Positions 14,955 to 57,600 of a stretch of 64,000 nucleotides of DNA are shown here, piece by piece. Every line of letters begins with the position of its first letter. The stretch's first letter is position 1. Under the pieces are notes generated by a model. The model saw only the letters and a program-made list of their open reading frames with translations. It was not told where the DNA came from and did not search any database. The position numbers were made by a program, and so were the translations under genes. This DNA is from a bacterium (GTDB lineage: Bacteria > Patescibacteriota > Minisyncoccia > Phycocordibacterales > UBA6899): assembly GCA_021851895.1 (NCBI GenBank), contig JAJZQJ010000005.1, forward strand, positions 14,572-78,571, read 5' to 3'.

Positions 14955-14974
14955 CAATTACAACTGCAACTAGA
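14955..14974. promoter_or_regulatory. Conserved motif CAATTACAACTGCAACTAGA (direct repeat CAACT-G-CAACT)
   Basis: The same 15-16-mer recurs at 16938-16953, upstream of the next surface-protein gene, and at 49612-49626 between DnaA boxes. Both surface-gene copies sit 10 nt before a TA-rich hexamer on the minus strand. Confidence 0.3.
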
Positions 14975-16905: not shown

Positions 16906-17252
16906 GGTATGCAGTTTGTTAACAATATTATACACCATACAACTGCAACTAGATTGCATCTTATCCACAGTTATAGTAAAGAAAATCCTTTTCCTTACTT
17001 GCTTTTTTCTTAGCATGCCCCCTTCCCATTTCCTATCACGCCAAAATCAACTTCTTCACACCTCTTTCATAAGCACATATCTCGATGCCCCACTACGAAC
17101 TTCGGAACCCTTCACTTCGATATATGAAACCGCGAGGAATGTTGTCTGCACCGCTCAGCTTTGGAGTCCGACAACGTACAGTGGTACGGCGAGGACGAAA
17201 AGCGAGTGATCCTCGCAAAATAACCGCAGCTCACATCACGCTGGAGTAAACA

Positions 17253-36482: not shown

Positions 36483-37646
36483 TTAGAACGTTGGGGTTGC
36501 CACGTAAATGAGATTCGTGTGGTAATCCGTCGCTGCCTCCTGGAGTGGGCTGATCTCAGTCTTGTAGTAGACAGTTGTCGTACCAAAGCCCTGACCGATA
36601 CCCGCTGTCGAAGATGCATTTCCGAACACAGATACTGGCGTTCCGCGAACGAAATCACCGGTATAGAGCTGTCCGCCAAATGAGTAGATACCACCCTGTG
36701 GGATCGCAGCGTCATCAGATGACACACCGATATGGCCCCATGTCGTATCATCGTTCACATTAGCGAGCGGTGCTGCCCATGCAGCTGGAGCTGATGCTGA
36801 GAATCCATCGATGATCGCACCATTCTGTGACTGGAATGGCTGATCAGAGACGACCGTAACATTGAAGCCCTGACGAGCATTGGTCTTCACCTGGAGTTCC
36901 TGTGCAGCAGTTTGTGCAACATTCACTGGGAGAATACCGTAATTGATTGTCGTAGTGCTCGAGTCTGTCGTGATCGCACCATACGTCGTTGGTGTCGTAC
37001 TTGCAACACCCGAGATAGTGAAATCAAAGATTGGATCAACCTGTGCGATAACATCAACATTCTCGACCAATGCAACGCGAATACGTGTCGACTGATTCGA
37101 TGTTATGTTGAAGAGCTCGATCATGTAATTCGCAGCCGTAGGTGTCGATGGCTGTGGATTCAAGATCATGTTGCCTGCAGTGTTACCGAGAGTGACCGTA
37201 TACACCGTAGAGGATGACATGACGCCATGACCTGCACACGGAGTAAGATCAACTTGGTCTGCAACCGCGACCGCAGAGAAATCGTCGGTTCCACAAGTTG
37301 CACCTACTGTCTTTCCAGCAACCGTGATGTCCGCAGCAGTCAATGTACTTGCGTCAAAGTTTGATGCATCCGGATTCGGATAGAACTTGAAGCTGAGTGC
37401 AGTACCTTCTGGAATATCGACCTTCGGCTGGAATACGAACTTGTGCGTAGAATACTGATTCAATGCACCAGTAGTGATACGCGCGTTGTTCAACGTATCG
37501 CTAACGTTTTGGATTGCGATTGTCATCGCAGATGCAGTGTGTGCTGCAAAGATCGCAGAAACCGTACTGATAACCATGAGAACACTGAGGAAAGCAGTGA
37601 ATGCCTTCTGTTCTCTGAAGTAAGCAAACAAATTTTTGTAATTCAT
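36483..37646 (-). CDS. Secreted Ig-like surface protein, paralog A, with C-terminal ...NLIYVATPTF domain
   Basis: Start at MNYKNLFAYFREQKAF plus a signal peptide. 55-60% identical to the 38026 gene. The C-terminal ~200 aa is homologous to the C-terminus of the 1788-aa protein. Confidence 0.55.
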   Translation of the reverse strand: MNYKNLFAYFREQKAFTAFLSVLMVISTVSAIFAAHTASAMTIAIQNVSDTLNNARITTGALNQYSTHKFVFQPKVDIPEGTALSFKFYPNPDASNFDASTLTAADITVAGKTVGATCGTDDFSAVAVADQVDLTPCAGHGVMSSSTVYTVTLGNTAGNMILNPQPSTPTAANYMIELFNITSNQSTRIRVALVENVDVIAQVDPIFDFTISGVASTTPTTYGAITTDSSTTTINYGILPVNVAQTAAQELQVKTNARQGFNVTVVSDQPFQSQNGAIIDGFSASAPAAWAAPLANVNDDTTWGHIGVSSDDAAIPQGGIYSFGGQLYTGDFVRGTPVSVFGNASSTAGIGQGFGTTTVYYKTEISPLQEAATDYHTNLIYVATPTF

Positions 37647-38025
37647 AAGAACTATACAAGCAGCGTTATGGGACACTGCTTAGGCGAATAAGCGTGGGCG
37701 CAAAAGTGTAATCGCAAATGCAAATACACCAGTGCTTTGGCGTTTTTCGACGACGCCATGGAAAGTGGAAAACCCGCAAACCTATGCGCCCCAGCGGATA
37801 CATACATCTACTGGCGGAGGATTTCCTCCTACTTGTAATTATACTACATATGTGAACAACTTACTGATAAACCTGTGGACAAGTACTAAAAGTGAATGCA
37901 TAGCATGGGGATAACACCTGCTCATCTACGTTGACGATCGGAAATAAGATGAAACCTCCCCCACCTGAACGGGAAAAACGCCCCCGTAGGGACGTTTTCT
38001 CCGTTTGCTTTCTTTAGGATTATGA

Positions 38026-39210
38026 TCAGAACGTCGGTGTAGCGACGTAGATGAGATTCGTGTGATAATCGGTTGCAGCCTCCTGAAGTGGAGTGACTTC
38101 CGATCGGTAGAAGACCGTAGTCGTACCAAGACCAACACCGAAACCTGCGGTCGACGACGCATTACCGAAGACAGACACAGGGATTCCCCGGACGAAGTCT
38201 CCGGTCCAATGGTCGCCACTAAGCGCCGCAGATCCAGGAATGTCCGCGTCATCACTCGAAACTGCGATGTGCCCCCAAGTCGTATCATCGCCAAGCAATG
38301 CTGCTGGTGCTGCATATGCCGTCGGTGCCCCTACAGTTGCAGGGAAACCATCGATGATCGCGCCGTTTGAAGACTGGAATGGCTGATCCGCAACGACGGT
38401 GACATTAAAGCCCGTCTTTGCATTCGTAATGACACGAAGTTCCTGCGCAGCAGTCTCCGGTGTGTTCACTGGGAATGCACCATAGGCGATGGTCGAGGTG
38501 GATGAGTCGATCGTAATCGGCTTACCATCGATCGTCGTACTACTTGCAACCCCTGATACTGTGAAATCAAATGCGGGATCAACAGATGCAGAAACCAAGA
38601 CACTGCTCACCAGTGCGACCAGGGTCGATGTGAACTGATTCGATGGACCAGCGATGTCTACCTGATAGGTGTATGCATCATACTGAGCTCCAGGTGCCGG
38701 GTTCGCGACCAGATGACGAGTCGAACTGCCGAACGTTACCGAAAATGGCGACGTCGAAGCGATCGTATTTCCTGGGCAGACTGAAAGTGCAAGCACGGAT
38801 GCACCTGGCGTGAAAGAGTAGTTCTCGCTGCCCGTACAGCTTGCGCCAACGATCTTGCCAGGAACATTCACGTCGAGCGCATCGATACCCGATGCATCGA
38901 AATTCGTTCCCGTATTCCCTCTTCCCATGCTTGCGTCATCAGCACGGAAAGTGAACGTGAGCGACTGACCCGCAGTGACATCGACCTTTGGCGTCAAGAC
39001 AAAGGTGTGTGCAGACGAATAGGTCGTCCCCGCCGTAGATAAACGCGCATTACTCAATGTGTCCGTCACATTGCCAAATGCGAGATATGCAGCCGAAGCG
39101 ACATGCGCCTCAAACGCAGCTGCAGATGAACCTATGATCACAATAATAGACAGAAAAGCGGAAAACGCCTTCTGCTCCCTAAAGAAAGCAAGGGATTGTG
39201 AATATTTCAT
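38026..39210 (-). CDS. Secreted Ig-like surface protein, paralog B
   Basis: Start at MKYSQSLAFFREQKAF. Tandem duplicate of the 36483 gene including a ~350-nt upstream region. Confidence 0.55.
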   Translation of the reverse strand: MKYSQSLAFFREQKAFSAFLSIIVIIGSSAAAFEAHVASAAYLAFGNVTDTLSNARLSTAGTTYSSAHTFVLTPKVDVTAGQSLTFTFRADDASMGRGNTGTNFDASGIDALDVNVPGKIVGASCTGSENYSFTPGASVLALSVCPGNTIASTSPFSVTFGSSTRHLVANPAPGAQYDAYTYQVDIAGPSNQFTSTLVALVSSVLVSASVDPAFDFTVSGVASSTTIDGKPITIDSSTSTIAYGAFPVNTPETAAQELRVITNAKTGFNVTVVADQPFQSSNGAIIDGFPATVGAPTAYAAPAALLGDDTTWGHIAVSSDDADIPGSAALSGDHWTGDFVRGIPVSVFGNASSTAGFGVGLGTTTVFYRSEVTPLQEAATDYHTNLIYVATPTF

Positions 39211-39471
39211 TAAAAACAAGTTAAACAGCGTTATGGGACACTGTTTAAACGTATAAGTGGGCGCAAAAGTGTGCCGAGTGGCACGCTGCGAGGCATCGAC
39301 AGATGCCGAAAGTGGAAAACCCGCTGCTTATGCGCACAAGAAGATCATTCGATCGACTTGTGGAGGACGGCCTCCTACATGCAATTATACTACAGATGTG
39401 AATAAATATGTGTATAAATATGTGGACAACACACAAAAAAACTGCACAACCTGTGGATAGGTCGCGCAGTA

Positions 39472-40596: not shown

Positions 40597-41874
40597 TTAA
40601 CGCAATCGAATGATGTGTTCTTCGGGAACAACGCGAACCTTCTGCTCGAGTTGCACTGCATAATGAGCAGGAGGAACAGTACGCACGCGGGGAGGAATGT
40701 TCACCTCAGTCAAGCCACTGATGACACTCTCTTCAAGCACATCTTCGAGGCGGTGTCGCTTACCCCTAAATAGGTGGCCGAGTCTCTTGAACATACTCTC
40801 GTCATCCACGTCCTTTTCATCGACATGTCGTTCATGCGGTTCTTCGTCTTCTTCGGCGACTTCAGCATAAGCATACGATGGACGCGCGAGGTCACGGCCG
40901 CGAGCGAGCATCGCGAACAGCACGATAAGCACCACGAACACCGAACCGAAACCGATCATCTTTGACCATGGTATGACCCAAAAATAAACGACATCTTGCA
41001 TCGTACCGCGCTGCCCATAGCTCATATCGAGCATGGCTTTATATTTCCCGAAATGCCCCCCTGCTGCCCAAGTAGCAGCAAGCAACGCTTTCCCTTTTGG
41101 CTCGACTTCTTTGCCATCAGTGTTCACGTCGACCATACCAACTTCCTTGCCCGTATTGTCGAATATTCTTATCTTTCCATTCGGAGTCAATGCACGATTA
41201 CCTGTATTCTCTACAGAAAAACTGAAGTTCGCTTGTGGATTTATGAATATATTCTTCGCAGCAGCAAAAGAAAATAATTGCAACTTCTCGCGAATGTCTT
41301 CAGTTACCTCGATATTCATCAGCACTTCTTGTGTACATGCTGTACACTTCTGCGCGTCAAACTGCGTCGGACCAGATGCGAATTTTATGGCAACATGATA
41401 ATTCCCCGGCTTTGCCCGGGCAGGTATCTGCATCTGAAATGGAATGGTTTGTTCTTCTTTCGGAAGAAGATTAATAGAGCGAGGTATCTCGATCCAGCGT
41501 GATGGGCTTGAGTCTAATGGGTTAGCATTCAAGCCACTCATATCGCGATTCGAGAGGTCGCCTTTCATGTCATCAACATCGACAACCCAAACGAAAAGCG
41601 TCGACACACCCTGACCAGTGGTCTGTACTGTTATATTATGATGACTTATCTCACGAACTTTTCCTTTCGTATCAATGACCTTCGGAGTCACCTCAAAGTT
41701 CGCAGCATAGACAGAGAATGGTAATACAAAACACCCAAAAAACAGGGCAATAACAGGCCAAACTGCTTTGCGTGTGTGTATGTTCACTACATATATAGTA
41801 TACACTGGAAATAGTCGAATTATGCTTACTTTTCCACAGAAAATCATGATTTTCGGGCGACAAAAGAACGACAC
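40597..41874 (-). CDS. Secreted beta-rich protein with TM anchor and acidic tail
   Basis: Same architecture as the preceding gene. Start uncertain. Confidence 0.45.
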   Translation of the reverse strand: MSFFCRPKIMIFCGKVSIIRLFPVYTIYVVNIHTRKAVWPVIALFFGCFVLPFSVYAANFEVTPKVIDTKGKVREISHHNITVQTTGQGVSTLFVWVVDVDDMKGDLSNRDMSGLNANPLDSSPSRWIEIPRSINLLPKEEQTIPFQMQIPARAKPGNYHVAIKFASGPTQFDAQKCTACTQEVLMNIEVTEDIREKLQLFSFAAAKNIFINPQANFSFSVENTGNRALTPNGKIRIFDNTGKEVGMVDVNTDGKEVEPKGKALLAATWAAGGHFGKYKAMLDMSYGQRGTMQDVVYFWVIPWSKMIGFGSVFVVLIVLFAMLARGRDLARPSYAYAEVAEEDEEPHERHVDEKDVDDESMFKRLGHLFRGKRHRLEDVLEESVISGLTEVNIPPRVRTVPPAHYAVQLEQKVRVVPEEHIIRLR

Positions 41875-41908: not shown

Positions 41909-44900
41909 TTAATAGACAGGGGTGATCACGTAGATAATGTTCGTACTATATGTGCCAGGCGGAGTGCCTGCATGCGGCTCTATCTTATAGACGACATCAA
42001 CAGTCTCACTCCCCGTTGTTGGGAGATCTGAATAACCAACTTCCGATGGAGTGCTCGTCGCGAATTCAGCCCAAGAATCATTCGGGGCGAATCTGTCTGG
42101 TATCCCCGTCGGACTCAACGTATGATCAGATGTGTGATAACCGATACAACCTGCACTCGCTGCAGGACACCCCGTAGACCAAGGTACCGGTGCGGAATTT
42201 GGTGCACCAATGATCGATGGCAGCTTATCTCCATAAGCGTCGAGCAAATCCCCTTCTGCCTGCATCGTCACCTGATACCCCATCATAGCATTCGTCGTTA
42301 TGTGCAATTGATGCGCAAGCACGGCGACCGAATCCATCGTGAGCATGCCAAATGGAGTTGTTGTTGCCGTTGTTGTACCTGTCGTTACTGAGCCATCGAT
42401 GGTGACGCCTGCATTTACTCCACTAACGAGGCCGTCGACAGTCGCTCCCTCCGCAACGACTGACGGATAAGACGCGGCACTCTTCTCGAGCGGTACATTC
42501 CGATTCACGTCATAGAGGCGGAAAAAATACGTCTGACCGGTGCGTTCTCGCATCGAGGTTATTGTATACTCCATTTCAGTATTACTACCCGCTGCAGGAG
42601 AGAATGTCGACGTACTCGTTGCTTCATTGTGCCTTCCCAGTGTTGTGCCTGTGAGGGTTTGAACCGAAAGATTCGTATCATCAGGTCCTACTCCATACGC
42701 ATAGCAAAACGTACTTGTCGCCATACAATCATTCTGCAGATCAGCGAAATGCACCCCTGAACTGAACGTTGGGTCCTCCGACCACTGCACTGCGAAGCGT
42801 TCATTCGATCCCGATTCATTTGCAACATCTTGAAGCGCGGCACGCAGCTTGAATATAGTCTTATTCGCCACACCTGATGGTGCAATCTCTACACCTGCCC
42901 CCAAGAATGGTTGCCAATTGACCTCATTTGCGTAATCATCAACGAAACGCCAAGATGATATCTCTGGTGTATACCCTGCAGTACGTATGACCGGATAGAA
43001 GTCGTAACCAAACAATGGTTTGCCGCCATCCTCTACTACACGAAAACAGTAATCAGAATCCTTAAGCGCATTATTTCGTTTCAATGCCCAATCATATTCG
43101 ATATAATCACCCGTCTCACTCGTATTCGCCGGATTCGGATTCAACGCGGTGAGTCCATCTTCCGAATAGAGCTCGGGAACATGCCCGATTGCGACCGCAA
43201 CGAGCGCAGAAGGAATGCTTGTTCCGCTTGATAGGCCAGCATTGTGATATCCCGACCAATCGCCACTTGCATTCACATCCATCCAGCTTGCAGATGGGAT
43301 GGCGCTACAAGAACCAGAAGTGCGTAATGCGGACTGCAATTGAAAGGCGCGATCGGCTATTGGCATCGTTGAAGTGCTTACTGCAAGTGCGATACGCAAA
43401 CGCACGCTATCACTCTTACGCACAGGGCGATTAAGCGCGGTCATCTCCTGATCATCTCCGAGTGGATTTGGCGACCCAAGATACCAAGAATCCGTAGGAG
43501 TTAGTGCGCCGTTATCGGTATAGATACGGAAACCGGCTTGCGTGAACGTCGCGCGACGCACCTGCTGATGCTCTTCGTAAGTGATCGTAAACACATTACT
43601 GAAATTGGTATAATCGACCGCGGTCGACTTTGCATTACGCACAAGCATCGAGATCGTACTGCTTGGCATCGTCCCACTCCCCCAAAGATCAGTCGCGAGC
43701 ACAGGCTGCAACATGGTTGTATTGTATGGATACGAAGTCGCAGGACCCGCCTCGGTAGTTACGGTCCCCGCACCGCCCACTGCAGAAATAAATGCACCTC
43801 TTGTGATCGTTGTTGCCGCACCGTGTGCGATATACGTCTCAAGTTCTGCGGCACGAAAAGTCGTATCGACATCACGAGCGAGATCGATCGAAAACGGATA
43901 TGTTGTTGTCGCTATCGCCGTACTCGGAGCATATTGCTGTGGTGCCACATACGAGAGACTTCTCGCTTGTGTACCCCCATGACTTCCATCCCAAACGTAC
44001 GTGATAAGTAATTCTGCGGTTGCAGGGACCGAAGCCGTGACGAAATTGATGTTCGCGCTGATCGCAGTCCCTGAGGTCGCGTAAGATCCAACAAGCGAAG
44101 AGAGATCATGGATGATATACGTCTCTCCTCCACCACGATTGGTCATCGTTCCTGTCGTGTATGTTTGACTCAAACTTGATGCCCCTACGGTTCCTCCAAT
44201 TTGTGCCGAAAGCGAACTATGCGGTGAGTAGCGCACACGCAACCACATATTCTGTACTTGCGCTGACTGCATAGGAAGTATTGGTGTAAATGTACCAATA
44301 GTTGTTGCAACTCCAACAGTAGGCGCGGTCGCGAGCTGTCCGAGCGGATAGGACAACGTCTCCGATTGCTGATTCGAACGACTTGAATACGCGTAGGTTA
44401 CGACGATCTCTCCACCCGTCTGCGCCAAAATGACTTTGTTGTTGCTCGATGATACTGCGATAGTATTCGGCGTATTGATCTGAAAATCATTCACCCCAAT
44501 GGGCATACCCCAGAACAACCGAAGACCAGTAGAATCCAATGAGGTTTCCGTTGGACTAAATGTCACACTCGAACCTGCAGTATGACCTACGGTGACCGTA
44601 TATGCACGCTGGTTCGCACTTCCCGCGGAATTTGCGAGCGTCGTGATCTCTGCATGCACATCAAGAATATTCGCAGTGTCGTTATTCAAAAGATCCGCAA
44701 TCGTCGCGTTGTAATTAAAATCACAACCCTTCACCGCACAAACCGAAGTGATCGATCCTGAGTCACCTGCGACCGTAGAATCGAGCGGAAACCGCACCGT
44801 CTTGACTCCAACCATCGGATTCAAAGAATATGAGGTCTCATACGTAACAACCAATTTCGCGGTTGTGAGTGCACGTGTTGGACCTGTCGAGGAAAGAGCG

Positions 44901-47275
44901 ACACCCACGTTCACACCATTATTGAGCGCCGCACTCGACTGACCGATGAACAAACGTGTTGCATCGATTTGCGAGTGATAATAGTTCGTGACCGTACTTC
45001 CACCACCGGCGATCTGATTCATCGGCGCAACGTAAAGTTGAATGCCTTGAGCGTCACCAGAGAGTGAACCAGTGATATCACCAGTCACGGTGAGGCCCGT
45101 AAGTGCAACGACATTTGTCGAAGAAAATGAGAGGTCGACATATGCATTAACGACCTTTGCATCATCACCGAGCAATTTCACGAGCATGCCTGCCGGCTTC
45201 GCTGTCCCCCAAGTTGCGCCAGCGTACGAATACACTCCACTCGCTGCAGTCGCTTGATAGGTTCCGCCGCCGAGCATGAACTCCGCAGTACGCATTTGCT
45301 TTGGTTTTGGCACGAATGCGACAGGCGCGGCGGCCGAATAGGTGAGCACAACGACATTCGCGAAATACGTATAGTTCGCGGACACATCGACACTCTCTTC
45401 GATCGCAAATGGATAACGTTCACCCGAAAGATCGGATGTCGCACCGATATCGCTCGGCGTAAATCTTGCATAGAAACGTTCCGCGAATGGATACGTACCG
45501 CCCGTACCACCAACTTCCGCGATCGAAAGTGCATTTGCTGTCGTCGATGTGCCGAAGCCGATGTGTACTCCAGAAGAGATGGTGATCGCTGCAGTGTTCG
45601 AATGACCGAAATGCACTTCAAGAAAACCATCTTCAAATGTTTTTTGCGCACGCTCAGGGAGAAAGAGTATCGCATGGCGCACCTTATCCACCGTACCCAC
45701 ATTTCGACCAACCGCAGGCAAAGAGGCGGCATATGTCGCGGTCTTCGTCTGTGCGCTCGTCGGAGAATAGGTCCAGGAGAACGTCGTTACCACCTCAATA
45801 GCGACAGGAGATCCCCCTGCCCCACTGAATGCGAATGTTCCCCCAACAGGAGTCGATGCTGAAAACGAGAGACTCTCTGGAGTCAAACTGTGAATGACGA
45901 CCGGTGAATTCGCTGAACGTCGCGCGGTCGACGGAGCAGGAAATTGGTAGACCTGACTTGTACCACTTGTACCGTTCACACTATGGGTCACCGTCAAATT
46001 CGTCGCTGCAGTAAACACCGGAGCAAGGCTCATACGATACCAAGCCTTCTCAACGACAGGAGCATCGTTCGCTATGGCGATATTCGTCGTTGAGATTGGA
46101 ACACTCGCACCAGCTGCAGGAGATGCGGTCTCTTGATCAGAAAAATATCTTATCGTCTCTGTTTGCGTCGTTGCTGTTGGGTTGAATTTATACGTGATCA
46201 CCACCTCACCACCAGTTGCATAAAGTGCCGCACCTCCAGCGGTGTTCACAAGATTCAGTGTATGTAGCGTGTTCGCGCGAAGGTCAGAACCACCGATAGG
46301 TAGCGCACCCCAAAGCACGCGAGTCTCATGTGTATCGGCGACCGCTTCGTTCCATGCATAAAGTGGAGAAGCGGTTCCCCCAGAGAACTGGAGGCGAAAT
46401 GTTGAATTCACCGTGCCTGCGTGATATGCATAGAACTCGATGTGTGCATCGAGGATGTTCGCATCCGCCGAAAGATCGCGGATAACATTCGTGTCGAAGG
46501 TGAAAGGACATGTTGCACCAGCAGCACAAACCGTTGTACGCGTACCAGTATTTCCTGCAACTCCAGTTGATGCGAGTGGAAGATGCACAGACTTCACGAG
46601 ATACGGCAAGGTTCGATCGATATCCACCTCATAGGTGATCGACAATTTTGCAGTAGTCAACGCCCTGTTTCCCGCGCTCAATGTTGGAGCAACTCCAACA
46701 AGCACATGAACACCCGAATTGAAGGCGGAGTCTGATTGCGTAGCAAAGAAACTCGTGACGTCATTCACCGTCCTCAAGTAACCCGTACCGCCCGCCATGA
46801 TCGCAAGAGGGATAGTACCATTTGCACCGTTCACGGGCACATCAGTACCCTGAGTGCCCGAACCTTCGACATCCATGAAAATCCTATTCTCTGTAACTGA
46901 GGCAGCTGCGGTATATGGATACTCATACGAGACATCAAGCTGTGCGCTGAGCACATGGACGCCAGTCCCAAGCAAGGTGACCACGTCGCCACCTGTTGTA
47001 AGCGTCGGCTTTGTCGTCGACCATGCAGTCGCGCCCGCATAAGCCATTACCCCACTCGCACGCACGGTATTGTCCGACCCACCGCCGAGCACGAATTCCG
47101 CCGTACGCAATTCTTTGCCGAATGCCGTCGCAGAAGCCTCTGCATGACGGACACCAAACGTTCCAAGCATGAGGAAGAAAGCATCGACGCCACCCATGCT
47201 GACCAAAAACAACGCGACGAGAAGTGTCGTCGTGAGTATTTTCATAGAAAAAGTTCTCGCGTTGTTTATGGTCAT
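41909..47275 (-). CDS. Giant (1788 aa) Thr/Ser/Gly-rich cell-surface protein
   Basis: Signal peptide (possibly from M11, 47245). Internal ~600-aa repeat (TAEFVLGGGS.../TAEFMLGGGT...). C-terminal domain shared with the 36483/38026 proteins, ending NIIYVITPVY. Confidence 0.6.
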   Translation of the reverse strand: MTINNARTFSMKILTTTLLVALFLVSMGGVDAFFLMLGTFGVRHAEASATAFGKELRTAEFVLGGGSDNTVRASGVMAYAGATAWSTTKPTLTTGGDVVTLLGTGVHVLSAQLDVSYEYPYTAAASVTENRIFMDVEGSGTQGTDVPVNGANGTIPLAIMAGGTGYLRTVNDVTSFFATQSDSAFNSGVHVLVGVAPTLSAGNRALTTAKLSITYEVDIDRTLPYLVKSVHLPLASTGVAGNTGTRTTVCAAGATCPFTFDTNVIRDLSADANILDAHIEFYAYHAGTVNSTFRLQFSGGTASPLYAWNEAVADTHETRVLWGALPIGGSDLRANTLHTLNLVNTAGGAALYATGGEVVITYKFNPTATTQTETIRYFSDQETASPAAGASVPISTTNIAIANDAPVVEKAWYRMSLAPVFTAATNLTVTHSVNGTSGTSQVYQFPAPSTARRSANSPVVIHSLTPESLSFSASTPVGGTFAFSGAGGSPVAIEVVTTFSWTYSPTSAQTKTATYAASLPAVGRNVGTVDKVRHAILFLPERAQKTFEDGFLEVHFGHSNTAAITISSGVHIGFGTSTTANALSIAEVGGTGGTYPFAERFYARFTPSDIGATSDLSGERYPFAIEESVDVSANYTYFANVVVLTYSAAAPVAFVPKPKQMRTAEFMLGGGTYQATAASGVYSYAGATWGTAKPAGMLVKLLGDDAKVVNAYVDLSFSSTNVVALTGLTVTGDITGSLSGDAQGIQLYVAPMNQIAGGGSTVTNYYHSQIDATRLFIGQSSAALNNGVNVGVALSSTGPTRALTTAKLVVTYETSYSLNPMVGVKTVRFPLDSTVAGDSGSITSVCAVKGCDFNYNATIADLLNNDTANILDVHAEITTLANSAGSANQRAYTVTVGHTAGSSVTFSPTETSLDSTGLRLFWGMPIGVNDFQINTPNTIAVSSSNNKVILAQTGGEIVVTYAYSSRSNQQSETLSYPLGQLATAPTVGVATTIGTFTPILPMQSAQVQNMWLRVRYSPHSSLSAQIGGTVGASSLSQTYTTGTMTNRGGGETYIIHDLSSLVGSYATSGTAISANINFVTASVPATAELLITYVWDGSHGGTQARSLSYVAPQQYAPSTAIATTTYPFSIDLARDVDTTFRAAELETYIAHGAATTITRGAFISAVGGAGTVTTEAGPATSYPYNTTMLQPVLATDLWGSGTMPSSTISMLVRNAKSTAVDYTNFSNVFTITYEEHQQVRRATFTQAGFRIYTDNGALTPTDSWYLGSPNPLGDDQEMTALNRPVRKSDSVRLRIALAVSTSTMPIADRAFQLQSALRTSGSCSAIPSASWMDVNASGDWSGYHNAGLSSGTSIPSALVAVAIGHVPELYSEDGLTALNPNPANTSETGDYIEYDWALKRNNALKDSDYCFRVVEDGGKPLFGYDFYPVIRTAGYTPEISSWRFVDDYANEVNWQPFLGAGVEIAPSGVANKTIFKLRAALQDVANESGSNERFAVQWSEDPTFSSGVHFADLQNDCMATSTFCYAYGVGPDDTNLSVQTLTGTTLGRHNEATSTSTFSPAAGSNTEMEYTITSMRERTGQTYFFRLYDVNRNVPLEKSAASYPSVVAEGATVDGLVSGVNAGVTIDGSVTTGTTTATTTPFGMLTMDSVAVLAHQLHITTNAMMGYQVTMQAEGDLLDAYGDKLPSIIGAPNSAPVPWSTGCPAASAGCIGYHTSDHTLSPTGIPDRFAPNDSWAEFATSTPSEVGYSDLPTTGSETVDVVYKIEPHAGTPPGTYSTNIIYVITPVY

Positions 47276-47279
47276 TTTT

Positions 47280-49472
47280 TTAATTAACTACAGGGGTCGA
47301 AGTTGCGTCAGACTCAGTGCGTATGACGGGCGGAGTTGCGACGACGATCTCAGTGTTCGATACCGGCGTCTTTGGTTGGTTACGTGTATTGTCAACGAGT
47401 CTACGCGCAAGTGCAGTGAGGTCGAAGGTTTGTGCACCATCGACGCTACTGCCCACCATACGCATTTGCCCATTGGCATCCTCTTCATTCCACACGAGTG
47501 CAACTCTTGGAGATTCGCTCTTCACTCCTGGTTTCGAAACGCGATGAGCGACACCTGTTGTGATGTCGTATGCGAAGACCTGCCACACACCATCTTCGAT
47601 CGCCTGCCACGTGATCGTATCACCAGAGACATTCGGGAACATATCCGGTGCGTTATTCGCAGTAATGCGCTTCACCAACCAGTCACCGTTCACTCCTACT
47701 GCACGATGATCAGCAGACAACGCATCATCAGGTATTTTCTCTGGAGATGGAGCAGCAGTGAATATTTCCCAATTTCCATCTACCCATGCTTGCCATGCGA
47801 TTCTTCCGCCGTACACTTTGGGATTGAAATTATTATCTCCGCTAGTGAGATACTTCACCTTTGGTACTCCAACATCATTCACGTGCGCATATGCGATTTG
47901 CCACTTACCATTCTGCATTGATTGCCATACGAGCGTATCGCCAGATGGATCAAGAACAGGGAAAACGTTGTCATCCGTTCCATGCGTAAGCTGTATGGTG
48001 CTTGCGCCACGCACAAGGAAAATCTGTTTATTTCCCGTCGACGGATCCGGCTGGACAACCACGGAAATCGAGCGCTCGTTCGCGATCACTGGCGAACCGA
48101 ACGACTGTGCATCAGGGATACAGTAATAACCCGTTCCATCGAGATTCTTACAACCCCGATAGACCTCTTGCTCCACTTCCCTACGCACCTCTTGTTTCAC
48201 CTCATCACGTACTTCATTACGTAACTCACCGCGCATCTCGTTGCGCAACCGCGCACGAATCGCATCGATGTTACCGATGACCTCATCAGGTGCGACATCG
48301 AGGATCGGCGTCTCCCCGTCGGCTGTTGTTGATGCAACAGTCTCTGTTTGCATGGTCTCATCAACGACGATCGTCGTAGATGCAGTACTTGACGATGCGG
48401 TGTCGATGATCACAGGAGGTGGCGTCTCGATAGCGCCCTCTGACGATGAGGTCGAAGAATCTGATGATGAGGTATCCGACAGTGCCGCACCGCCACCCGA
48501 TGAGACAGGTTGAGTAACCGGCGCTGGATCAGCGACTTCCTGGGTTGTACCCGAAGCGTCACTCGAAGAAGCGGGGGTCTCTGTGGTTGGCGTATCCGAA
48601 GCGAGCTTGTCTGTTGTACTTCCAGAATCTACGACCGGAAGCGAATCGGTTGCCGAGCTCGCTACTGGTGCAGGTGTCGGATCGGATTGCGTAATCGCTG
48701 CAACGTCGTTGCCACCACCCTGCGCTACCGACTGCGGAGCACCAGCATTTGCGTCTGCAGTCGGTGCAGTCTGGACATCTTGCGATGTTGGAGAATCTGC
48801 AGCATTAACGGTTTGAGTATCTTGCGCTGCCGCTGCATCAGCAGAAGATGGCGCAGCTGATTGACTTACGTCAGAGGACACAGAAGGAGCCGCAACGGCA
48901 GCAACATTCGAACTTACGTCAGATTCTGGTGCAGAAGCTGGCTGAGTGTTGTCTGCAACGGAAGTGCTCGGTGCATCACTGGATCCAACGATCGCTGCGA
49001 CATCACTTGCGACACGATCAGCAAGTGGCGCCTCATCTGCGTATGCAGGAGCGAGCGGAGCAATGAGCATTGCAGGTATGAGTAACCATGCGAAGAAACG
49101 CGCAAGAGGAGATGCGGGTTTGACTGCTGCAACACGAACATCACTACCCGAGAGAGCTGCGTCGATAACTCTTCGCAGAGCGCCTTCATCTTTTCGCGCG
49201 TGCGCGTATGCGTGCGCGCTCGCGCGCGCCTGCGCGTGCGCACGCGCGCGCGTAACAGAAAAACTTCGAACGGTCAAATCAGCGGATTTTGCATCACGCG
49301 AAAGGTTTGTCCCCCCACCTGTTACTGCAGTTACAGACGCTTTTCTTTGGGAAAGCAGAATAGCCCCACCCGTCTTCGGGGAGGAGGTGTGCTGCACAAG
49401 CCTTGTTGGTGGCGGTTTTATACCACTACGCGGCAAGTGAACAATACTGTTTTCCGGTTCGTATTTCATCAT
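47280..49472 (-). CDS. Membrane-anchored protein with a low-complexity stalk and C-terminal TolB/WD40-like beta-propeller
   Basis: Repeated DxxPxxSGDxxxWQ blades at the C-terminus; one TM after a ~130-aa cytoplasmic N-terminus. An alternating-CG tract at 49196-49260 lies inside the coding sequence. Confidence 0.55.
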   Translation of the reverse strand: MMKYEPENSIVHLPRSGIKPPPTRLVQHTSSPKTGGAILLSQRKASVTAVTGGGTNLSRDAKSADLTVRSFSVTRARAHAQARASAHAYAHARKDEGALRRVIDAALSGSDVRVAAVKPASPLARFFAWLLIPAMLIAPLAPAYADEAPLADRVASDVAAIVGSSDAPSTSVADNTQPASAPESDVSSNVAAVAAPSVSSDVSQSAAPSSADAAAAQDTQTVNAADSPTSQDVQTAPTADANAGAPQSVAQGGGNDVAAITQSDPTPAPVASSATDSLPVVDSGSTTDKLASDTPTTETPASSSDASGTTQEVADPAPVTQPVSSGGGAALSDTSSSDSSTSSSEGAIETPPPVIIDTASSSTASTTIVVDETMQTETVASTTADGETPILDVAPDEVIGNIDAIRARLRNEMRGELRNEVRDEVKQEVRREVEQEVYRGCKNLDGTGYYCIPDAQSFGSPVIANERSISVVVQPDPSTGNKQIFLVRGASTIQLTHGTDDNVFPVLDPSGDTLVWQSMQNGKWQIAYAHVNDVGVPKVKYLTSGDNNFNPKVYGGRIAWQAWVDGNWEIFTAAPSPEKIPDDALSADHRAVGVNGDWLVKRITANNAPDMFPNVSGDTITWQAIEDGVWQVFAYDITTGVAHRVSKPGVKSESPRVALVWNEEDANGQMRMVGSSVDGAQTFDLTALARRLVDNTRNQPKTPVSNTEIVVATPPVIRTESDATSTPVVN

Positions 49473-49531
49473 TACGGACCACGATGGGCAGCCACCCATC
49501 AATGATCACCATAAGGACGATTGCATATGGG

Positions 49532-49638
49532 TGTGGATAACTCCTGCAAACGTCTTAACTATATTTTACCGCGGAACAGAGCGCTTTTTTGGTTTTTATC
49601 CACATGTTATTCAATTACAACTGCAAAAGTTATCCACA
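49532..49638. promoter_or_regulatory. Cluster of three perfect DnaA boxes (TTATCCACA) with an adjacent AT-rich tract: candidate oriC or DnaA-regulated site
   Basis: tgtggataa at 49532-40 (reverse), ttatccaca at 49596-604 and 49630-38, AT-rich DUE-like tract at 49696-49740. Located next to gyrB. Confidence 0.5.
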
Positions 49639-49873
49639 GTTTTTCACCAGAACACCTTGTCATTGGTACTAACATATTTGATGGCTCAACAAACAAATAT
49701 ATATATTTATATAGTATACTTAGTGTGATATTGACGAGCTTACAAATGAGTGTCATGAAAAATTCCTCACCACTCATTGAGATACCCGTGCGAGGCAAAA
49801 ACGTTCAACTATACAAGCACTGATTACACCCCCATATGCTTGCAATTTTCAAGAAACATGTATGGAAATTCAA

Positions 49874-49904
49874 CAAAAAAAACAACTGACCTTGTCAGTT
49901 GTTT

Positions 49905-49906
<2 letters not shown>
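49874..49906 (-). terminator. Rho-independent terminator of gyrB
   Basis: aacaactgac-ctt-gtcagttgtt with a U-run on the minus transcript. Confidence 0.6.
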
Positions 49907-52169
<2,263 letters not shown>

Positions 52170-57486: not shown

Positions 57487-57493
57487 CCAAAAA

Positions 57494-57523
57494 CAAAAAC
57501 CCCCTTGCGGGGGTTTTATGTTT
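57494..57523 (-). terminator. Rho-independent terminator of tRNA-Thr
   Basis: aaaaccccc-ttgc-gggggtttt followed by atgttttt. The hairpin is symmetric. Confidence 0.6.
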
Positions 57524-57524
57524 T

Positions 57525-57600
57525 TGGAGCCACCTGTCAGGCTTGAACTGACGACCTACGGTTTACAAAACCGTTGCTCTACCAACTGAGCTAAGGTGGC
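57525..57600 (-). tRNA. tRNA-Thr (anticodon UGU), CCA encoded
   Basis: Reverse complement reads GCCACCTTAGCTCAGTTGGTAGAGCAACGGTTTTGTAAACCGTAGGTCGTCAGTTCAAGCCTGACAGGTGGCTCCA. 7-bp acceptor, D-arm GCTC/GAGC, anticodon loop TTTGTAA, T-loop TTCAAGC. Confidence 0.85.

Follow-up and report, generated by a model that had tools for sequence, protein, structure and literature searches.

Three DnaA-type boxes behind gyrB flank a conserved promoter-like element of a surface-protein operon in a Patescibacteria lineage and are unlikely to mark a replication origin

The 64-kb window studied here, that is the whole stretch of 64,000 nucleotides presented above, carries three perfect DnaA boxes in the spacer behind gyrB. 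In our reading, which has a rough probability of 0.58 and is drawn from sequence comparison, these boxes are the operator sites of the conserved promoter of a surface-protein operon, controlled by DnaA or a DnaA-like protein, and not a chromosomal origin (oriC). The boxes flank a conserved promoter-like element inside what appears to be a single replication arm and are therefore best read as a DnaA-type control region. The sequence-only reading had put forward a candidate oriC with, as a fallback, a non-origin site of DnaA binding; its observation of the boxes stands and its fallback is compatible with our results, but its headline does not hold. The main practical result is thus that the candidate site is very probably not an origin, at a place where box-counting tools would call an oriC, with a misplaced origin in the metagenome-assembled genome and skewed growth-rate estimates as the consequence.

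The exact 9-mer TTATCCACA was found four times in the 64-kb window, the sole copy outside the spacer being located at 16961. Dinucleotide shuffles gave an expectation of 0.34 copies per window and none of 100 shuffles reached four. For the spacer, the expectation calculated from its own composition was 0.0054 copies, with a probability of ~3e-8 for three or more, and the cluster is therefore not due to chance. The sequence-only reading had described three exact boxes within 107 bp in a non-coding region bounded by gyrB, and both descriptions were confirmed, including the coordinates and strands of the boxes:

49630-49638, plus strand: box 3, exact TTATCCACA, read as TGTGGATAA in the direction of transcription (minus strand)
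49596-49604, plus strand: box 2, exact TTATCCACA, also read as TGTGGATAA in the direction of transcription (minus strand)
49532-49540, minus strand: box 1, exact TTATCCACA, inverted with respect to boxes 2 and 3

The start-to-start spacing of the boxes is 34 and 64 bp, with gaps of 25 and 55 bp, and a distance of 64 bp, or ~6.1 helical turns, separates the centre of box 2 from that of box 1. Box 1 is flanked by a conserved inverted repeat, TTGCA (49545-49549) ... TGCAA (49521-49525). A search of the spacer with up to two mismatches revealed no box beyond these three.

The non-coding spacer extends from 49473 to 49904 (432 bp), between the stop codon and terminator of gyrB on one side and, on the other, the start codon (ATG) of the minus-strand gene that comes next. 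In the direction of transcription it thus follows gyrB and precedes another gene of the same orientation, a point absent from the sequence-only reading. The surrounding features are:

49905-51968, minus strand: gyrB, 687 aa, ATG at 51968, assigned by the Pfam domains DNA_gyraseB, Toprim and HATPase_c and by synteny
49878-49906, minus strand: intrinsic terminator of gyrB, a hairpin with a 13-bp stem and a T-run behind it, overlapping the gyrB stop codon
47280-49472, minus strand: gene of a 730-aa protein, annotated ATG at 49472, target of the candidate promoter
41909-47275: gene of a 1778-aa protein, next after the 730-aa gene and followed by further genes without assigned function

gyrB is the final gene of a conserved pheS-pheT-gyrB block and is ended by a strong terminator, so that the downstream operon needs its own promoter in the spacer. 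The 730-aa protein comprises an N-terminal region, a TM/signal-like segment, a linker rich in S, T, A and P, and a beta-propeller with PD40/TolB-like repeats. Its start (ATGAAA at 49469) and N-terminus are conserved in the relatives, and its homologues were found only in close relatives, which form a narrow lineage. The gene cluster headed by the promoter contains lineage-specific giant surface-protein genes and pilin-like genes. No candidate regulator is encoded by the genes adjoining the cluster. A plasmid, phage or mobile origin was also considered and rejected, the neighbouring proteins having given no match to a replication or phage family.

The window was found to be identical, without a mismatch, to contigs of the metagenome-assembled genome GCA_027330905.1, of ENA ERZ27237050 and of Logan SRR13189623, and by its GyrB it is closest to Patescibacteria from the Paceibacteria/Parcubacteria group. 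The contigs of close relatives were fetched through homologues of the lineage-specific 730-aa downstream protein, and five genomes were compared: the window, L171, L173, L174 and L175. All four relatives possess the three boxes, in the same orientation and with the same 34- and 64-bp spacing as in the window, and throughout the five genomes the boxes are perfect or deviate from the consensus by at most one mismatch. In each relative the boxes are located upstream of the orthologous operon, so the cluster always travels with the operon, the downstream protein being only 44-79% identical among the five genomes. The groundwater genome L171, with a GyrB identity of 94.6% in amino acids and 82% in nucleotides, exhibits the same gene order as the window (pheS-pheT-gyrB-spacer-operon). 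L175 is far more divergent, with an AT-rich genome and a downstream protein of 44% identity; there the sequence between the boxes has diverged, but the boxes, the -10 hexamer and the distances persist.

The alignment of the five spacers delimited a conserved block that extends well beyond the 9-mers:

49521-49700, minus strand: conserved regulatory block of ~180 bp with the three boxes, the -10 element and GTT(G/A)AGCCAT
49564-49569, minus strand: candidate -10 hexamer TAAAAT within GGTAAAATATAG, invariant as GGTA(A/T)AATATA in the five genomes

The fraction of invariant columns is 0.60-0.90 in 49521-49700, as compared with 0.10-0.35 in 49701-49920 and 0.00 in 49501-49520; gyrB, as a yardstick, shares no more than 82% of its nucleotides with L171. 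Read in the direction of transcription, the block consists of GTT(G/A)AGCCAT (49681-49690, the invariant upstream element), box 3, 25 nt, box 2, 26-27 nt and GGTA(A/T)AATATA, then 22-23 nt, TTGCA..AG-TTATCCACA-..CA..TGCAA (box 1), a non-conserved stretch, GTGGCTGC and ATGAAA. Box 3 with its flank, AAAAACTGTGGATAACTTT, is invariant in the five genomes and box 2 is kept in all of them as TGTGGATA(A/G/T). The gaps from box 2 to the -10 hexamer (26-27 nt) and from the hexamer to box 1 (22-23 nt) hold in 5/5 genomes. Four genomes carry TAAAAT as the hexamer and L175, the most distant one, a perfect TATAAT. No TTGACA-like -35 was found at this candidate promoter; a conserved A-tract occupies that position, in the interval between box 2 and the hexamer, which also contains a conserved CGCT. 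These features suggest that the hexamer at 49564-49569 is the -10 element of an active promoter. As the conservation exceeds the 9-mers, an RNA element or further factors may play a part too. Another promoter candidate, TCCACA-18-TATGGT, was rejected since its -10 falls in a stretch with 0% invariant columns.

The arrangement of a box and a -10 hexamer, written as TGTGGAWAN-N26-28-TAWAAT, is found again at two further promoters (16969 and 41838); in the window the regular expression had 2 matches against 0.003 expected from 300 local shuffles:

41798-41838, minus strand: second occurrence of the module, at gene three of the cluster, with TGTGGAAAA (41830-41838), N26 and TATACT (41798-41803)
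16927-16969, minus strand: third copy, with the fourth exact box (16961-16969), N28, TATAAT (16927-16932) and an ATG near 16906

The orthologous third-gene promoters of L171, L173, L174, L175 and L176 all read TGTGGAAAA-N26/27-TATAAT.

Relative to the start site predicted from the hexamer, box 3 would be located at ~-82 to -74 (centre ~-78), box 2 at ~-48 to -40 (centre ~-44) and box 1 at ~+16 to +24 (centre ~+20). We propose that transcription of gyrB stops at its terminator and that the operon (the 730-aa gene, the 1778-aa gene and further genes) starts from the TAAAAT promoter at 49569-49564. At this promoter, which has no -35 consensus, box 2 would occupy the position of a class-II-type activator, with box 3 as a second site farther upstream, while a protein bound to the inverted box 1, past the start site, would block RNA polymerase. 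By this geometry, a protein at -44 would activate and one at +20 would repress, and cooperative contacts would be possible; the sign of the regulation is deduced from these positions. The expression of the operon would in this way be coupled to the DnaA level or to the replication status, and the site would also sequester some DnaA. A bolder version, which we hold to be possible but rather doubtful, is that DnaA has been recruited in this lineage as a general promoter factor, acting at promoters devoid of a -35 through a box fixed at ~-44, 26-28 nt before the -10, and forming, at the head of the surface-protein cluster, with the upstream and +20 boxes a switch that first activates and then represses. 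If true, the production of a cell-surface or attachment apparatus would be tied directly to the replication cycle in an ultra-small, regulator-poor and probably host-attached bacterium.

Non-origin DnaA-box clusters and DnaA-regulated promoters are already well known in model bacteria. In B. subtilis, intergenic clusters of DnaA boxes control the genes beside them (Ishikawa et al. 2007, PMC2533591), and the sda, ywlC, yydA and dnaA clusters likewise consist of intergenic consensus TTATCCACA boxes placed by promoters and outside the unwinding origin. There DnaA activates or represses the adjoining genes, and relatives retain the clusters along with the neighbouring gene, as observed here. However, stable DnaA binding in B. 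subtilis involves clusters of at least four boxes (4-10) with a mean spacing of 4-21 bp (PMC2533591), whereas the present site has exactly three boxes, 34 and 64 bp apart and bracketing a -10, which is below that density; the host and the target differ too, being here an uncultured member of the Patescibacteria and a surface-protein operon. In P. aeruginosa, the oriCII boxes regulate gidA (PMC13438810), so that an origin-like DnaA-box cluster with demonstrated transcriptional control of an adjacent operon is known, but oriCII is located in the origin region by gidAB-parAB, in contrast to the present site, which is inside a replichore and has no origin-proximal marker genes. What is new here is the Patescibacteria host, the module of fixed geometry and the lineage-specific surface-protein operon. 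To our knowledge, almost nothing is known of transcription control in Patescibacteria, and DnaA-type boxes at fixed positions before a defined operon, available in several orthologous versions, offer a testable handle on it.

DnaA is most likely the protein that binds the boxes, as it is the only protein family that we know to read exactly TTATCCACA. The alternative that best survives, although we judge it unlikely, is a different factor that recognises TGTGGA(T/A)AA, such as a clade-specific regulator, in which case the promoter module would hold and DnaA would be uninvolved. Several promoters carry the module with a relaxed box, for instance TGTGGAAAA, which is consistent with such a factor, and 12-bp tandem arrays at the two pilin-like paralogues, a further setting in which the motif is employed, resemble the direct repeats of response regulators. 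This alternative also draws on distant relatives, for which we collected 160 gyrB loci from GTDB genomes and JGI metagenomes (57-75% GyrB identity, 2.2 Mb). The pheT-gyrB synteny is common among these loci, and no comparable box cluster was found after gyrB, none of the 160 containing more than one exact box in a 300-bp stretch. Single exact boxes are nevertheless ~9-fold more frequent than expected in the 250 bp that follow gyrB (6 as compared with ~0.7), and three of the six belong to 11-bp tandem GTGGATAA repeats placed before mraZ (Pfam MraZ, 3e-31) in L157, L159 and L160. These repeats, which look like MraZ operators, score as DnaA boxes just downstream of gyrB, and the 9-mer is therefore not exclusive to DnaA in this clade. 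By inspection, an exact or one-mismatch box after gyrB adjoins a terminator or a promoter-like element in L014, L046, L069 and L140.

The boxes of the window are of another kind. Sites of the MraZ and OmpR types consist of direct repeats in tandem, and the MraZ operators of these relatives are tandem direct GTGG-containing repeats with a 10-11 bp period before mraZ, whereas the present boxes are neither tandem nor periodic, lie 34 and 64 bp apart with one of them inverted, and have no mraZ in the window; they thus do not conform to MraZ operators. The perfect match of the three boxes to the 9-mer DnaA consensus, kept to within one mismatch in the five genomes, and the lack of a candidate regulator gene beside the cluster argue further for DnaA as the binder.

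That the site is a locus of DnaA titration or of the DnaA cycle, of the datA, DARS or Streptomyces type, which would sequester DnaA or alter its nucleotide state with the promoter being incidental, appears quite improbable. The cluster is non-coding and outside the origin, and its three perfect, high-affinity boxes of conserved geometry, one of them inverted, recall the three-box DARS core (PMC4585315). E. coli datA, DARS1 and DARS2 are indeed non-origin DnaA-box clusters with conserved box spacing, like the present site. However, datA is defined by no fewer than 4-5 boxes, the essential ones standing at a fixed spacing on either side of an IHF site (PMC4585315), and in E. coli it needs five boxes together with the IHF site, so the three boxes found here fall short of that number. 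As regards DARS, the number of boxes and the inverted box match. The three boxes extend here over 107 bp, DARS cores being as a rule far more compact, and DARS needs a compact core with flanking elements. Neither datA nor DARS is a promoter, while here a conserved -10 stands at a fixed distance between the boxes; the module moreover occurs with a single box at other promoters, and the cluster always accompanies the operon behind it. The titration site envisaged by the sequence-only reading is hence compatible with our results as far as DnaA binding outside the origin is concerned, but the conserved -10 favours promoter control over pure titration.

We regard as very unlikely a chromosomal oriC, or one half of a bipartite one, in which DnaA would bind the boxes and melt the AT-rich tract. 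The site shares with E. coli oriC (R1/R2/R4 and DUE) the mixed-orientation TTATCCACA boxes over ~100-200 bp with an AT-rich stretch nearby, and its three perfect, widely spaced boxes, one inverted, in a long spacer are superficially like the R1/R2/R4 scaffold. gyrB is also an origin neighbour in many phyla. Unlike oriC, the present site has no switch of skew or gene orientation, no conserved AT-rich element, no low-affinity boxes, no DnaA-trios and no dnaA or dnaN within ~89 kb, and it contains a conserved -10 between the boxes.

The skew inflection is used to place origins in complete bacterial genomes, and CPR genomes account for the majority of the complete metagenome-assembled genomes listed in the same work (PMC7111523). 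Neighbouring contig pieces were added to the window, giving a composite of ~89 kb (-9 kb to +80 kb). Between -6 kb and +75 kb, all 3-kb bins of the composite had a negative GC skew; a dip to ~0 at 75-78 kb corresponds to two membrane-protein genes, past which, in secA, the skew is negative again. There is consequently no polarity switch at the site, and the proposal of an oriC fails the skew test. Within the window, the plus-strand skew was negative in all 2-kb windows but two, slightly positive ones near 15-17 kb and 37-39 kb, and every one of those in 49-64 kb was negative; it amounted to -0.064 left of the spacer and -0.090 right of it. Plus-strand genes showed a skew of -0.083 (third codon positions -0.247) and minus-strand genes one of -0.070 (third codon positions -0.099). 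Being negative for genes on both strands, the skew reflects the replication strand and not the coding strand. The switch is absent in L171 as well, where the skew does not change sign across the spacer (+0.112 and +0.057 on its two sides, in gene orientation).

The orientation of the genes gave the same picture. Both genes flanking the spacer are on the minus strand, as are six of the six cluster genes to the left and, over ~30 kb to the right, 28 of the 31 called genes, including rpsB, tsf, pheS, pheT, alaS, prfA, rpmE, rplY, mnmA and secA. An origin at 49.5 kb would therefore place these minus-strand genes, and gyrB with them, head-on to the fork. We infer that the whole region belongs to one replichore, in which the forks run from high to low coordinates and the origin is located beyond +80 kb.

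The absence of dnaA and dnaN from the window, already stated by the sequence-only reading, was borne out by Pfam scans of the window ORFs and by tblastn. With B. subtilis DnaA as query (validated by Pfam, Bac_DnaA 7e-81), no dnaA was detected in the window and its extensions (~89 kb in total) or in the 160 related gyrB loci, the best E-value being 0.1. dnaA was found within 6-10 kb of gyrB in 0/160 of these loci, so that the adjacency of gyrB, which had been taken in support of an origin, carries no such meaning in this clade. A bipartite origin is likewise unsupported since there is no dnaA between sub-regions. As for the tract that had been proposed for unwinding, its composition was confirmed:

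49688-49732: AT-rich tract, 84% AT, the joint highest value among the 45-mers of the window

It is separated from the nearest box by 49 bp and contains no DnaA-trio-like run. The tract is however specific to this genome and absent as an AT-rich element in the four relatives: positions 49701-49720 are 90% AT here compared with 60-65% AT in the relatives, with 25% invariant columns. It is thus not a conserved unwinding element.

A structured 5'-leader RNA, with boxes 3 and 1 as the arms of a long hairpin and the DnaA-box match as an incidental feature, is likewise most improbable: a 17-nt inverted repeat does span boxes 3 and 1, the minus-strand fold has a z of -2.1 and RNAalifold extends the hairpin with 2 compensatory pairs, but the covariation is not above that of shuffled controls (120/500 shuffles reach the observed value), the extended arms are lost in L175 where the 9-mers are kept, the third identical 9-mer is left unexplained by the hairpin, and a conserved -10 stands inside it. 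A known RNA family was excluded by an Rfam search, which gave no match at the gathering threshold or at E<=0.01.

Some minor elements of the spacer were also recorded. A 56-aa ORF called by the annotator (49607-49777) was treated as spurious, since it has no family match and crosses the non-conserved AT tract. Promoter-like matches on the plus strand within this tract are located in non-conserved sequence, and the remaining 45-mers with the highest AT content in the window are promoters of the TTGACA-16-TATAAT type.

Box-plus-TATAAT arrangements were found outside the spacer (the 432-bp non-coding stretch between gyrB and the 730-aa gene), both in the window and in relatives carrying the orthologous surface-protein gene cluster (L171 and L173 to L176); their positions are listed here, together with those of a motif that also occurs within the spacer.

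16927-16969, minus strand: fourth exact DnaA box of the window, with TATAAT
41798-41838 in the window, 13391-13445 in L171, 8312 in L173, 8139 in L174, 8434 in L175 and 7358 in L176: third-gene promoter in the cluster that the spacer heads
49612-49626, 16938-16948 and 14955-14969, minus strand: motif TTGCAGTTGTA(ATTG)

The fourth exact box is followed by a perfect TATAAT 28 nt downstream and by an ATG near 16906, about 55 nt downstream; the box is thus promoter-associated, and position 17016 is probably not the true start of the long ORF. The third-gene promoter reads TGTGGAAAA-N26/27-TATAAT, and only about 8 nt separate the -10 element from the annotated GTG start of this gene, after which the conserved AGTGAACACAC..GCAAAG appears; this implies a leaderless mRNA or a wrongly called start. 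The three copies of TTGCAGTTGTA(ATTG) in the window were all located in promoter-like regions near a DnaA-type box, with a 15-mer common to the spacer and to 14.96 kb detected by BLAST; the motif is not conserved in L175.

Box-like repeats ahead of a TATAAT were also observed at a tandem pair of paralogues of 397 aa each, which share 54% identity.

36483-37676 and 38026-39219, minus strand: the paralogous genes themselves
37677-38025 and 39220-39471, minus strand: their upstream regions, homologous to each other

Each upstream region contains three box-like 9-mers with a 12-bp spacing (TTGTCCACA, TTATACACA and TTATTCACA), and the arrays end 7-8 nt ahead of a perfect TATAAT. Downstream of the TATAAT, a GTAGGAGG..CCTCC hairpin lies at the predicted 5' end, after which comes a roughly 170-nt leader that carries the conserved blocks GGGTTTTCCACTTTC, CACTTTTGCGCCCA and CAGTGTCCCATAACGCTG; these upstream regions gave no Rfam match. 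The 12-bp arrays could be DnaA sites or response-regulator direct repeats. Since both paralogues show sub-threshold similarity to NCBIfam NF058581 ('CPR_Pam_pilin_C, Pam pilus system pilin subunit'), with E = 0.002 (18 bits, against a cutoff of 55) and E = 0.027, the cluster headed by the spacer may comprise CPR pilus or surface apparatus genes.

Repeats that score as DnaA boxes are present at the gyrB loci of three distant relatives, where mraZ (Pfam, 3e-31) comes after gyrB.

L157 6026-6100, L159 7200-7280 and L160 8094-8170: repeats upstream of mraZ

These repeats (tGTGtATAAat, tGTGGATAAaa, aGTGGATAAct and ..GTGG..) have an 11-bp period and are probably MraZ operators; they can mislead origin finders that count boxes.

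Further features were found in the spacer, in the neighbouring 730-aa gene, in relatives and elsewhere in this genome.

49607-49777, minus strand: 56-aa ORF of the public annotation, inside the spacer
49678-49715, plus strand: two weak promoter-like matches in the AT tract
49186-49262: alternating purine-pyrimidine, GC-rich tract within the 730-aa gene, in its 5' part
L171 5300-5480, L173 150-340, L174 45-185 and L169 4100-4330: GC-rich MITE-like repeat
L169 3881-4525 (about 75.7-76.3 kb, outside the window): 644-bp intergenic region upstream of rplY
57488-57539: contig junction, ends of DAHVZP010000007 and DAHVZP010000010 (GCA_027330905.1)

The 56-aa ORF spans non-conserved sequence and showed no family match. 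The plus-strand matches point toward the bidirectional gyrB terminator and could yield an RNA of about 190 nt, for which the fold z is -2.4, with the terminator contributing most. The alternating tract, gcgcgtgcgcgtatgcgtgcgcgc...gcgcgtgcgcacgcgcgcgcg, was read as RARAHAQARASAHAYAHAR, and a comparable tract at the start of L176 (about 110-150) indicates that it is conserved in the 730-aa gene family. The tract at 49186-49262 has Z-DNA-forming potential.

The GC-rich repeat, of about 200-300 bp with inverted ends (..GTCGGTCTTTTTGTCGGGA ... CTGCCGACAAAAATC.TCGACGTTTCATT), looks like a MITE. In three relatives its insertion separates the gyrB terminator from the conserved block (about 180 bp of the spacer, 49521-49700). 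The window's spacer lacks it, but the window's genome has a related copy at about 76 kb. The rplY-upstream region, with neither tRNA nor Rfam match, contains TGTGTATAAcgTGTGGAAAA, TATAAT, a GTAGGATAAAAACCTAC hairpin and catgactcatgac repeats. Finally, the ends of DAHVZP010000007 and DAHVZP010000010 overlap by about 52 nt beside tRNA-Thr (57525-57600); for the proteins of this region a 96.4-kb contig is recorded, and the window spans the junction, joining the two contigs.
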